Assembly (NCBI GenBank): GCA_018401175.1
Contig: JAGYLK010000048.1
Location: forward strand, 1-31,369
DNA from: Candidatus Altimarinota bacterium
Lineage (GTDB): Bacteria; Patescibacteriota; Gracilibacteria; UBA4473
Length of the DNA stretch: 31,369 bases
Reading direction: 5' to 3'
Below, in pieces: positions 27,872 through 31,369 of this stretch (positions are counted from its first letter, which is position 1; each line of letters starts with the position of its first letter). The notes beneath the pieces were generated by a model, which ran no database searches, had not been told where the DNA came from, and was given only the letters and a program-made list of their open reading frames with translations. A program made the translations under genes and the position numbers.

Positions 27872-28417
27872 ATGTCGCTTTTGATCCAGAAATTCGCTCA
27901 CAAGTTTTGTAAAGATTCTGTGCCAGACTTACGTCCAGGAATGATTGTGAAAGTTCATCAAAAAATTATCGAGGGAAATAAAACTCGTATTCAAATTTTT
28001 CAGGGAACGGTTATTGCGGTTAATCCAGGGCACAATGTAGATGCTACATTTACCGTTCGAAAAATTTCAGAAGGAGTTGGTGTTGAAAAAGTATTTCCAT
28101 TTCATTCACCAAATGTTGTAAAGATTGATGTGGATCGTGCTCAAAAAGTACGTCGTGCAAAATTAAACTTTTTGCGAGATCGAAGTGGAAAAGCACTTCG
28201 TTTGAAAGAGGTTGAATTAAAATTGAATCATAATGAGTTTGAAAAAGTAGAACCAAAAGTTGCTGAGGAAGCACCTGTTGTTGAAGAGGCAGTAGTTGAA
28301 GAACCAAAGAAAGAAGAGGTTGTTGCAGAAGCCCCAGTAGTTGAAGAAAAAGTTGAGGAGAAGAAATCAGACTCGGCTGAAGCTACGACTGACAAGGAAG
28401 AGAAAGCAGCCGAATAG
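27872..28417 (+). CDS. rplS: 50S ribosomal protein L19 with an acidic low-complexity C-terminal tail
   Basis: PDLRPGMIVKVH.KIIEGNKTRIQIFQGTVIA, TFTVRKISEGVGVEKVFP.HSP, VRRAKLNFLRDRSGK. Confidence 0.97.
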   Translation: MSLLIQKFAHKFCKDSVPDLRPGMIVKVHQKIIEGNKTRIQIFQGTVIAVNPGHNVDATFTVRKISEGVGVEKVFPFHSPNVVKIDVDRAQKVRRAKLNFLRDRSGKALRLKEVELKLNHNEFEKVEPKVAEEAPVVEEAVVEEPKKEEVVAEAPVVEEKVEEKKSDSAEATTDKEEKAAE

Positions 28418-28930: not shown

Positions 28931-30586
28931 TTACTTCACATCAAACTTTTCTCCCAAATACGTCGTATAGAGGTAATTTGTCTGAGCAGGAAACTCAGCA
29001 GCCAATGTGTCCACCTGTTTGGCTACCGGAATAATGTTCCATTTTTTACGTAATTCGCGTATTTCGTTTTCGGTACTGTTCATTCGTTCGGCAATTTCTC
29101 TGTCGCTGAATCCAAGAATTTTTGCTTTTCTTAGCAATTCTTTGTCTAAGTTTTTGGCTTCATCTAGCTCACGAGCAAATACGGCGATTCGGTCGAGTTG
29201 TTGTAAAAACCAATGATCGATTTTGGTCATTTCCCAAATCTTCTCAACATCAAACTTTTCCCGATACAACGCATGTGCAATAGCGAAAAGTCGGCGTGGG
29301 GAAGCGACGCGAATGGCATCTTCAATTTCTGCATCTGTTCGAAATTCAAGAGGAGAGTTCAGTATTCCGTGAGCCCCAATCGCGAGCATGCGAACGGCTT
29401 TTTGTACCACCTCGGGGAAATTTCGTCCCAGCGCCATTACTTCACCAACTGATTTCATTTCCGTGGCGATTTCATGACTGACTTTTCTGAATTTCTGCAA
29501 GTCCCAACGAGGAATTTTTAGCGCTACATAATCGAGTGCTGGTTCAAAGAACGCCGTTGTTTTGAGAGTAATAGCGTTTGGAATGTCAGGAAGTGATTTT
29601 CCAAGCATTATTTCTGCGGCAACGGCGGCGAGTGGATATCCAGAAGCTTTTGATGCGAGCGCAGAACTTCGACTAAGTCGTGCATTTACCTCAATAACAC
29701 GATATTCAGTATCATCTTTGGGATTGAGTGCGTATTGAATATTACATTCTCCAATAATGCCGAGATGGCGAATAGTTTTAATCGCGACGGTTCGGAGCAT
29801 TTGATATTCTCGATTTGCCATCGTTACGGAAGGGCTGATAACAATTGATTCTCCAGTATGAATTCCGAGCGGATCGAAGTTTTCCATATTCACAACCGTT
29901 ATACAGTTGTCCTGTCCATCGCGGACCACCTCGTATTCAATTTCTTTCCATCCACGTAAATCTTCTTCGACTAACACTTGAGGAGAGAAGGCGAATGCTT
30001 CTTTCACCATTTTGGGAAAATCTTCGCGTCGTTCACAAAATCCAGATCCCTTGCCTCCGAGTGCAAATCCAGCACGCATAATAAGTGGGAATCCTATTTT
30101 TTCGGCAGCTTTTATCGCGTCTTCTTTGTTATATGCAGCAATAGATCGAGGGGTGAGGACGTTTATTTCATTTAATTTTTTCACAAAAATTTCACGATCT
30201 TCCGTTGATTCGATAACACTTACAGGCGTTCCGAGTACAGTGATTCCAAATTTTTTCAAAATTCCAGATTTCTCAAGAGCAAGTCCACAATTTAACGCCG
30301 TTTGTCCACCAAAAGAAAGTGCAAGTGCCTCAGGTTTTTCTTGCGTGATAATTTTTACTACAAAATCCGGTGTCACGGGAGCAAAATAGACTTTATTTGC
30401 TCCGCAGAAAGTCGGGTCATTTTTTACCCATTCGGGATCAGTTTGTACGGTGGCGATGTTTGGATTAATGAGAATTACTTCGTGCCCGGCTTTCTTGAAT
30501 GTTTTGATTGCTTGAGAACCAGAGTAATCAAATTCGCCGGCCTCCCCAATTTTTAATGCTCCCGATCCCAAGAGAAGTATTTTCAT
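28931..30586 (-). CDS. carB: Carbamoyl-phosphate synthase large subunit, N-terminal half only (carboxyphosphate ATP-grasp + oligomerisation domain)
   Basis: LGSGALKIGEAGEFDYSGSQA, FGGQTALN, WKEIEYEVVRD, ENFDPLGIHTGES, IEVNARLSRSSALASKASGYP, ends PAQTNYLYTTY; 551 aa. Confidence 0.93.
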   Translation of the reverse strand: MKILLLGSGALKIGEAGEFDYSGSQAIKTFKKAGHEVILINPNIATVQTDPEWVKNDPTFCGANKVYFAPVTPDFVVKIITQEKPEALALSFGGQTALNCGLALEKSGILKKFGITVLGTPVSVIESTEDREIFVKKLNEINVLTPRSIAAYNKEDAIKAAEKIGFPLIMRAGFALGGKGSGFCERREDFPKMVKEAFAFSPQVLVEEDLRGWKEIEYEVVRDGQDNCITVVNMENFDPLGIHTGESIVISPSVTMANREYQMLRTVAIKTIRHLGIIGECNIQYALNPKDDTEYRVIEVNARLSRSSALASKASGYPLAAVAAEIMLGKSLPDIPNAITLKTTAFFEPALDYVALKIPRWDLQKFRKVSHEIATEMKSVGEVMALGRNFPEVVQKAVRMLAIGAHGILNSPLEFRTDAEIEDAIRVASPRRLFAIAHALYREKFDVEKIWEMTKIDHWFLQQLDRIAVFARELDEAKNLDKELLRKAKILGFSDREIAERMNSTENEIRELRKKWNIIPVAKQVDTLAAEFPAQTNYLYTTYLGEKFDVK

Positions 30587-30591
30587 TGTTT

Positions 30592-30684
30592 TTATTTGGT
30601 AATATTTTTCTTTATTGCGGTACGGCTCGGCAATCCTGCTTCTCCGATTTTGAGAGCGCCAGAACCGAGGAGGAGGATTTTCAT
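30592..30684 (-). pseudogene. 30-aa mini-ORF whose first 17 codons are a synonymously recoded copy of the CarB N-terminus
   Basis: MKILLLGSGALKIGEAG-LPSRTAIKKNITK*; begins 2 nt after the carA stop and ends 5 nt before the carB ATG. Confidence 0.85.
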
Positions 30685-30686
30685 TT

Positions 30687-31369
30687 TTATAACTGTTTTA
30701 CAAATTCATCAAACAAGTACTCTGCATCTTCTGGTCCAGCACATGCTTCTGGGTGAAATTGTGTTGCAGAAATGGGTAACGTTTTATGTCGAATTCCTTC
30801 CACACTTCCATCATTCAGATTTTCAAACCAAACTTCCCAGTCTTTGTTCAGTGATTTTTCATCAACCATAAATCCATGATTCTGTGTCGTGATTAAGCAA
30901 CGACCAGATTGTTTGTCTCGCACGGGTTGGTTCACCCCGCGATGTCCGTATTTCATTTTTTTCGTTTTCCCACCAGACGCAAGTCCGAGCATCTGACATC
31001 CGAGACAAATTCCGAATGTCGGAACTTTTCGGTGAATTGCTTCCCGTGCAATTTCAATAGTTTCTCGCATTGTTTCTGGATCTCCGGGACCATTGGAAAG
31101 AAAAATTCCATCAAATTTTTCATTTAATTCAAATGGGTTTTGATCAAACGGAACCCGAATAATGCGGATTCCACGTTTGAGAAAATTTCGAAAAATCCCA
31201 TTTTTTGCTCCACAATCAAGGAAGGCAACAGTTTTTCCAATAGGATGTTCTGGTTCCATGATTTCCATTACTTGTGGACTCACTGATGGTACAAATCGTC
31301 CATTGAGCTCGTCGGTATACCTTTTGTCAGCTCGTTTTCCGATTTTTCCCAACACGGTTCCGTGTTCTC
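30687..31369 (-). CDS. carA: Carbamoyl-phosphate synthase small subunit (partial, 5' end beyond window)
   Basis: LDCGAK, LSNGPGDP, GICLGCQ (catalytic Cys), GHRGVNQPV, TQNHGF, QFHPEA; frame open to window edge. Confidence 0.95.
   Translation of the reverse strand, partial: EHGTVLGKIGKRADKRYTDELNGRFVPSVSPQVMEIMEPEHPIGKTVAFLDCGAKNGIFRNFLKRGIRIIRVPFDQNPFELNEKFDGIFLSNGPGDPETMRETIEIAREAIHRKVPTFGICLGCQMLGLASGGKTKKMKYGHRGVNQPVRDKQSGRCLITTQNHGFMVDEKSLNKDWEVWFENLNDGSVEGIRHKTLPISATQFHPEACAGPEDAEYLFDEFVKQL

Follow-up and report, generated by a model that had tools for sequence, protein, structure and literature searches.

Integrative elements that rebuild the end of the gene they interrupt, such as prophage e14 in icd, do so at the 3' end of that gene, carry an integrase and share an identical core with their target. 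Homology-facilitated illegitimate recombination during natural transformation is said to have been described by de Vries and Wackernagel in 2002, and Nobusato et al. in 2000 are reportedly the source for a further type, insertion with long target duplication. In this last type, the inserted sequence lies between repeats of more than 30 bp, no mobility genes are present, relatives keep an empty site and the hosts are mostly naturally competent species (PMC2853133); the published repeats are identical at 43 to 46 of 46 positions (Furuta, Abe & Kobayashi 2010, PMC2853133). Here, we analysed the carA-carB junction of an uncultured Peribacteria metagenome-assembled genome (MAG; G000, 894 kb in 206 contigs), where carB is preceded by a second, silently recoded copy of its own first 17 codons. 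The window, that is the whole stretch of DNA analysed, is the complete contig C48 of this genome (31,369 nt). We propose, with a probability of about 0.6, that the locus was scarred by a recombination event of the "insertion with long target duplication" type and that a putative translational restart makes this scar harmless.

The upstream and downstream copies of the first 17 carB codons are hereafter called c1 and c2, respectively. Read in the direction of transcription, the junction is organized as follows:

30687..31369, minus strand: 3' part of carA, the glutamine amidotransferase subunit (Pfam GATase, E=7e-54), cut by the contig end
30634..30684, minus strand: c1, the native 5' end of carB (17 codons), now separated from its gene, 3-5 of 51 nt off the single starts of relatives
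30592..30684, minus strand: relic mini-ORF of 30 codons (30684-30595) followed by TAA (30594-30592)
30587..30633, minus strand: A-rich, non-coding spacer of 47 nt, left part of the putatively inserted unit
30536..30586, minus strand: c2, 17 foreign-looking and probably inserted codons, start of the working carB
28931..30586, minus strand: N-terminal half of carB, 551 aa (Pfam CPSase_L_D1, D2 and D3), with codons 18-551 native

The stop codon of carA (TAA, 30689-30687) is followed by 2 nt and then by the ATG of c1 (30684). In the relic mini-ORF, c1 runs into 13 spacer-encoded codons (tail LPSRTAIKKNITK) and the stop precedes the carB ATG by 5 nt. The peptide encoded by c1 and by c2 is MKILLLGSGALKIGEAG; the copies differ from each other at 15 of 51 nt and in 13 of 17 codons, with zero amino-acid changes. 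The two starts lie 98 nt apart, a repeat search returns a 54-nt direct repeat of 72% identity, and the longest identical run common to c1 and c2 spans 8 nt at the ATG. Thus, we could confirm the layout reported in the first-pass annotation, in which a mini-ORF (30684-30592) sharing the first 17 residues of CarB by way of silently different codons occupies the native position 2 nt after the carA stop, with the working start 98 nt downstream.

Direct repeats at such a distance might simply have arisen if the first ~100 nt of carB had been duplicated in tandem on the spot and the two copies had then diverged. However, the silent share of random single-base changes in these codons is 26-28%. With all 15 differences being silent compared to an expectation of ~27%, neutral decay of a duplicate cannot account for c1 and c2. 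Codon usage did not separate the two copies and no gene call is on record for the mini-ORF. When the whole genome was scanned for nearby pairs identical in peptide and diverged in DNA, this was the sole duplicated gene end; the remaining low-identity pairs were repeats inside repeat proteins or a protein domain present in duplicate. When 43 genomes of the family were searched with a degenerate 51-nt pattern of the peptide, a double match was found only in G000 and in another Peribacteria MAG, G041, and the control had no match at all. A double match in G214 was discarded, as it was the overlap of two contig ends and not a duplication.

Two starts for one gene could also be an assembly artefact, that is a chimeric join of two strains. 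The genome is indeed a 206-contig MAG and, in the likely source run of the window DNA (X1), Logan contigs end on either side of the region (30492 and 30618). Polymorphic sites at 30521 and 30588 lie 30 nt from these ends, a distance that is expected of k=31 bubbles and gives no sign of an empty-site allele. Moreover, a single 13,872-nt Logan contig from an aquaculture metagenome of a different study (X2) spans 30000-31369 with both copies and the spacer, at ~97.6% identity (32 substitutions and 3 gap positions), which excludes the chimeric join that the first-pass annotation had named as a possible refutation. In addition, a contig from a third sample (X3) joins carB to the spacer, the 8-nt run shared by c1 and c2 is too short to mislead a de Bruijn assembler, and a homologous structure is found in the unrelated MAG G041. 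We therefore consider an artefact to be extremely improbable. The X2 contig further illustrates strain variation at the locus: its c1 carries one silent change plus K12N, its c2 is unchanged, the mini-ORF is still open and three extra A are present between the relic stop and the carB ATG, this gap being 7-8 nt in other strains.

Close CarB relatives (83-92% identity) were found with a large protein search and their contigs were then retrieved. A single carB start lies directly after carA in L178/L179, L182, L185 and the complete genome G001, either 2 nt downstream, as for c1 in the window, or with an ATGA overlap; in L178 and L182, the sole carB start occupies exactly the position of c1, 2 nt after the carA stop. 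First, c1 differs from the single starts of L178, L177 and L182 at only 3, 3 and 5 of 51 nt, respectively (90-94% identical), compared to 14, 12 and 13 of 51 nt for c2 (73-76% identical) and to ~8 differences per 51 nt for the remainder of carB. Second, codons specifying the same residue are identical to those of L178 in 58% of cases gene-wide, in 13 of 16 cases in c1 and in only 4 of 16 in c2 (p=0.008). Third, the protein encoded by codons 18-551 is 90% identical to that of G002 and 86% to that of G001, the CarB tree groups the window with G002 and then with G001 (support 99/97 and 100/99), and sliding windows along carB reveal no mosaic and no change of affinity. The carA part present in the window is 81-83% identical in nucleotides to carA of these two congeners. 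Together, these data support a native upstream copy, a native carB body and an insert made of the spacer and c2.

These results bear out two proposals made from the window sequence alone, namely that the copies are alleles of different origin and that carB was cut at codon 17 by an event which also provided a recoded 5' end. By contrast, a third proposal, the xenologous replacement of the whole carB with the old start left behind, did not hold. Although it would explain why c2 looks foreign, codons 18-551 remain close to those of the congeners, branch with them and follow the phylogeny of the genus along their entire length, so that we judge it very improbable. In-place tandem duplication can hardly be entertained at all, given that c2, unlike c1 with its 94% identity to L178, has reached saturation at silent positions, and that the spacer has no significant similarity to carB codons 18-60. 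For this last reason, decayed carB was also ruled out as the nature of the spacer.

The sequence of events that we propose starts with the insertion of a 98-nt unit, composed of the 47-nt spacer and foreign carB codons 1-17, between the native codons 17 and 18. The native start c1 would have stayed put and would now open a dead-end ORF of 30 codons, while c2 would supply a new ATG and restore a complete protein; carB would survive because the insert brings its own start. c1 and c2 would differ only silently because each of them evolved, until recently, in a working carB of a different genome. The unit may have spread, or have been re-created, by recombination through the highly conserved 5' sequence of carB. 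Finally, ribosomes that finish the relic ORF would resume translation at the carB ATG close by, and the coupling between carA and carB would thereby be relayed.

Expression signals around the junction were examined as well. A search with the sigma-70 consensus found no sigma-70-like promoter and no terminator in the spacer; since neither separates them, carA, the relic ORF and carB probably belong to one transcript. Shine-Dalgarno-like cores are present upstream of only 34 of the 435 long ORFs of the genome and, given this rarity, initiation at carB probably relies on an A-rich unstructured leader together with restart. The native start has been preserved intact together with its original expression context, namely the coupling to carA in the window and a promoter-like site in G041. 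At loci of family genomes where carA is not directly upstream (L007, L008, L009, L011, L015, L018 and L149), a -10-like hexamer (TATAAT, TACAAT, TAAAAT or TAGAAT) is found 6-9 nt before the carB ATG, a spacing that suggests leaderless or near-leaderless mRNAs.

The window carB is itself the N half of a split carbamoyl-phosphate synthase large subunit. Its C-terminal counterpart is a 520-aa ORF on contig C89 (L002:1069-2628, minus strand) with CPSase_L_D1, CPSase_L_D2 and MGS domains. The two halves are unlinked and both are present in most genomes of the family, whereas carB is full-length (~1,080-1,120 aa) in other families of the class.

The second case, G041, belongs to another genus and falls into a different clade of the CarB tree from the window. 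In this MAG, carA is not upstream; a promoter-like site (TCGCCA-16-TACAAT) is located 8 nt before the ATG of c1, which opens a 24-codon ORF and is followed by a 46-nt spacer and a complete carB. Here, c1 and c2 differ at 16 of 51 nt and all the differences are silent. In comparison to the congener G008, identical codons amount to 50% gene-wide, 6 of 16 in c1 and 2 of 16 in c2 (p=0.002), which is consistent with c1 being the native copy of G041. The spacers of G041 and of the window give a global alignment score of 4, compared to -10 ± 3.9 for shuffles (p=0.0006), and both contain CCGTACC and an AAAAAT..AT.ACCAA.TAA block; judged by this resemblance, they are homologous. G000 and G041 also share two identical runs, 14 nt at the end of c1 and 11 nt after c2, and these flanks could have served as recombination anchors. 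As the two genomes sit in different CarB clades and the unit is absent from the closest relatives, vertical descent would need many precise losses, so that a unit having moved laterally between lineages would be the economical reading.

We then looked for the spacer and for c2 elsewhere. There was no further copy of the spacer in its own genome or in the retrieved loci, and the motif shared by the two spacers occurs once per genome and only in G000 and G041 among the 43 family genomes. The exact spacer 24-mer was absent from the searched genome-contig and metagenome-contig collections, a loose version of the spacer motif gave only chance matches in viral contigs, and the carB genes recovered from metagenome contigs by a protein-based scan were all distant (at most 61% identity). 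Nearest-neighbour analysis of the 51-nt starts alone was noisy and named no donor.

The recurrence in G041 raises the question of whether a miniature, non-autonomous mobile element with site specificity is at work here, the 98-nt unit being either the element itself or its minimal attachment remnant. The unit would target the conserved GEAG|EFD codons and carry a recoded 5' end that spares the gene on insertion, its enzyme being encoded elsewhere. Such an element would account for an identical junction and a homologous spacer of nearly equal length in two genera from different clades, for the native c1 and foreign c2 in both of them, and for the fact that the same carB segment was also struck in G128, a genome of another family described below. 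However, only two species among the ~185,000 species genomes scanned have the double-start pattern, each with one copy per genome. The spacer and the unit have no terminal inverted repeats and no hairpin, no identical core is common to both copies, no integrase or transposase is encoded nearby, none of the viral contigs carries a carB-start mimic and the G128 insert is unrelated in sequence. The unit thus has neither the inverted repeats or stable hairpin nor the many copies per genome of miniature inverted-repeat transposable elements (MITE) and repetitive extragenic palindromic (REP) sequences, and the window locus has neither the recombinase nor the identical core of a site-specific integrative element. 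Likewise, the integrase, HNH or intron involvement envisaged in the first-pass annotation finds no counterpart at the junction. We consequently regard a miniature mobile element as rather unlikely. The same degree of doubt applies to the broader claim that the unit represents a new kind of minimal 'self-healing' mobile insert, which would home to one codon boundary across genera thanks to an unknown site-specific or recombination-dependent mover and whose silently recoded start would spare the host any cost.

Another possibility is that the double start is a selected regulatory device, with the relic ORF acting as a leader or relay peptide that sets carB expression and with its 17 residues under selection. 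In line with this idea, the protein sequence of c1 is fully preserved in both genera, the ORF is uninterrupted in each of them and in strain X2, and its stop is close to the carB ATG in G000 as well as in the other strains. Yet the double start is absent from the closest relatives, which have a plain carA-carB junction, and this absence points to a recent gain rather than to a conserved feature. Moreover, the tails of the two mini-ORFs are unrelated (13 residues in the window, the 7 residues LSAVPFS in G041), 5 nt separate the relic stop from the start codon of carB in G000 but 22 nt in G041, and K12N is already present in c1 of strain X2. The perfection of c1 can be explained by its having been, until recently, a real gene start. 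There is also no conserved RNA structure: the fold of the spacer is not significant (z=-0.39) and no Rfam family matches it, which ruled out an RNA structure or riboswitch. The conserved regulatory or decoy peptide offered as an alternative in the first-pass annotation is thereby not upheld, and a purpose-built leader peptide is unlikely.

Two further candidates were tried and rejected. A predicted pairing between c1 and c2 amounts to Leu codons pairing with Gly-Glu codons, which is possible for any carB start. Translational bypass of the T4 gene 60 type was excluded because the take-off and landing codons mismatch, codon 17 being GGA in c1 and GGC in c2, and the reverse in G041; in addition, the codon after codon 17 is TTG or CTG, so there is no stop directly after take-off.

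An insertion into the same carB segment was found in G128 (C8; L148:2229-4224), which has a full-length carB. There, 65-nt direct repeats, identical at 64 of 65 positions, flank a fresh insert of 1866 nt whose only gene is an antisense orphan (590 aa, HExxH motif, no Pfam family), mobility genes being absent. A stop closes the upstream copy, and a new in-frame ATG plus six codons come from the insert. The 590-aa ORF is absent from 30 other genomes of the G128 family. By its anatomy, G128 is a textbook-like insertion with long target duplication and fits this class fully. The expectation that some strains would hold a large insert between the two starts is thus borne out in part: G128 has such an insert, but it belongs to another family.

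The carA|carB junction is variable in the genus of the window too, where at least six states were found: the genes are adjacent, or separated by one of four different antisense orphan-gene inserts, or by a same-strand phosphoribosyltransferase gene. The antisense orphan ORFs are membrane-like and encode 307/308, 148, 198+234 and 194 aa. Among the relatives at 83-92% CarB identity, inserts lie exactly between carA and carB at L034:4034-5171 (G002), L177, L180, L183, L184 and L186. The 307-aa ORF of G002 and the 590-aa ORF of G128 are mutually unrelated and neither has a Pfam family. Whatever the state of the junction, a second carB start is absent in all 10 closest relatives examined. From this diversity of contents, the carA|carB junction is a hot spot in the genus of the window.

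Two side observations were made around these genes. First, the states with an orphan ORF share a conserved module of ~200 nt directly upstream of carB (L034:4034-4250, minus strand, with equivalents in L177, L180, L183 and L184). Its hairpin has a 10-bp stem, in which 3 pairs are compensatory, and its 18-nt loop, which contains CCUCC, is conserved; TTTCCCTC-N17-TACACT-N9-ATG follows. It has no Rfam match and is absent from the genome of the window; further copies exist in another genus (G003, G043, G044), sometimes two per locus. This module could be an RNA element, or else the 5' region that members of a variable gene family have in common. Second, the ORF at 27872-28417 (plus strand, 181 aa) of the window presumably encodes ribosomal protein L19 (rplS), as relatives have a Pfam-identified L19 gene at the same position. 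It has a long acidic Glu/Lys/Val-rich C-terminal extension; the L19 gene of relatives encodes 142 to 173 aa.

Several observations weigh against reading the window structure as an insertion with long target duplication. First, the published cases have near-identical repeats around gene-sized inserts, while the repeats are here 71% identical (36/51) and the insert is 47 nt of non-coding DNA. Second, no donor of the spacer or of c2 was found in the contig collections, viral contigs and genome scans. Third, the junction is the same in two genera (after codon 17) and the spacers measure 47 and 46 nt, which needs either lateral spread within very short flanks or a site-specific process, neither of which was seen directly. 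Fourth, the spacers are ~37% diverged, yet the last 14 nt of c1 are identical between the genera; the two fit together only loosely, and the probability that codon preference alone would give the 14-nt identity by chance is ~0.035. In addition, a search for independent runs covering the G041 stretch found none that held it well, and the translational restart is a step that we infer from the sequence.

If a recombination scar is nevertheless the right explanation, an insertion within the first codons of an essential gene can be tolerated without loss when the incoming DNA brings the codons of another lineage, and the old start persists as a short upstream ORF. Because recoded duplicate starts of this sort can be mistaken for leader peptides or annotation errors, recognising such scars prevents over-interpretation. 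The ultra-conserved 5' end of carB and the carA|carB junction would be marked as a recombination hot spot in Peribacteria, and the two cases provide indirect evidence that short DNA patches are exchanged between genera of uncultured small-genome bacteria.

How, then, does the locus compare with the described systems? As with e14-type elements, a diverged end copy brought by the insert completes the gene and leaves a silent-only duplicate behind; unlike them, the locus is affected at the 5' end, has no integrase or core and keeps only 47 nt between the copies. Homology-facilitated illegitimate recombination can set a donor allele beside a truncated recipient allele, with one end anchored by homology, here the carB 5' sequence, and the other joined illegitimately or by microhomology, and its contribution is something that we infer from the anatomy alone. 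In comparison to insertions with long target duplication, the locus differs in that its repeats are diverged, silently only, and thus lack the near-identity seen in G128 (64/65), in that the insert is non-coding and not a gene complex, and in that a second genus has the unit at this very codon. It resembles them in three respects. First, relatives have an empty single-copy target (L178/L179, L182, L185 and G001). Second, the 51-54-nt repeats align to the single target of L178 (48/51 for c1 and 37/51 for c2). Third, no mobile-element gene is found in the 98-nt insert or in its neighbours carA, carB and rplS, the contig ending inside carA. We thus read the double start of carB as most likely a scar left by recombination, small, harmless and of an already described kind, and not as a new regulatory device.

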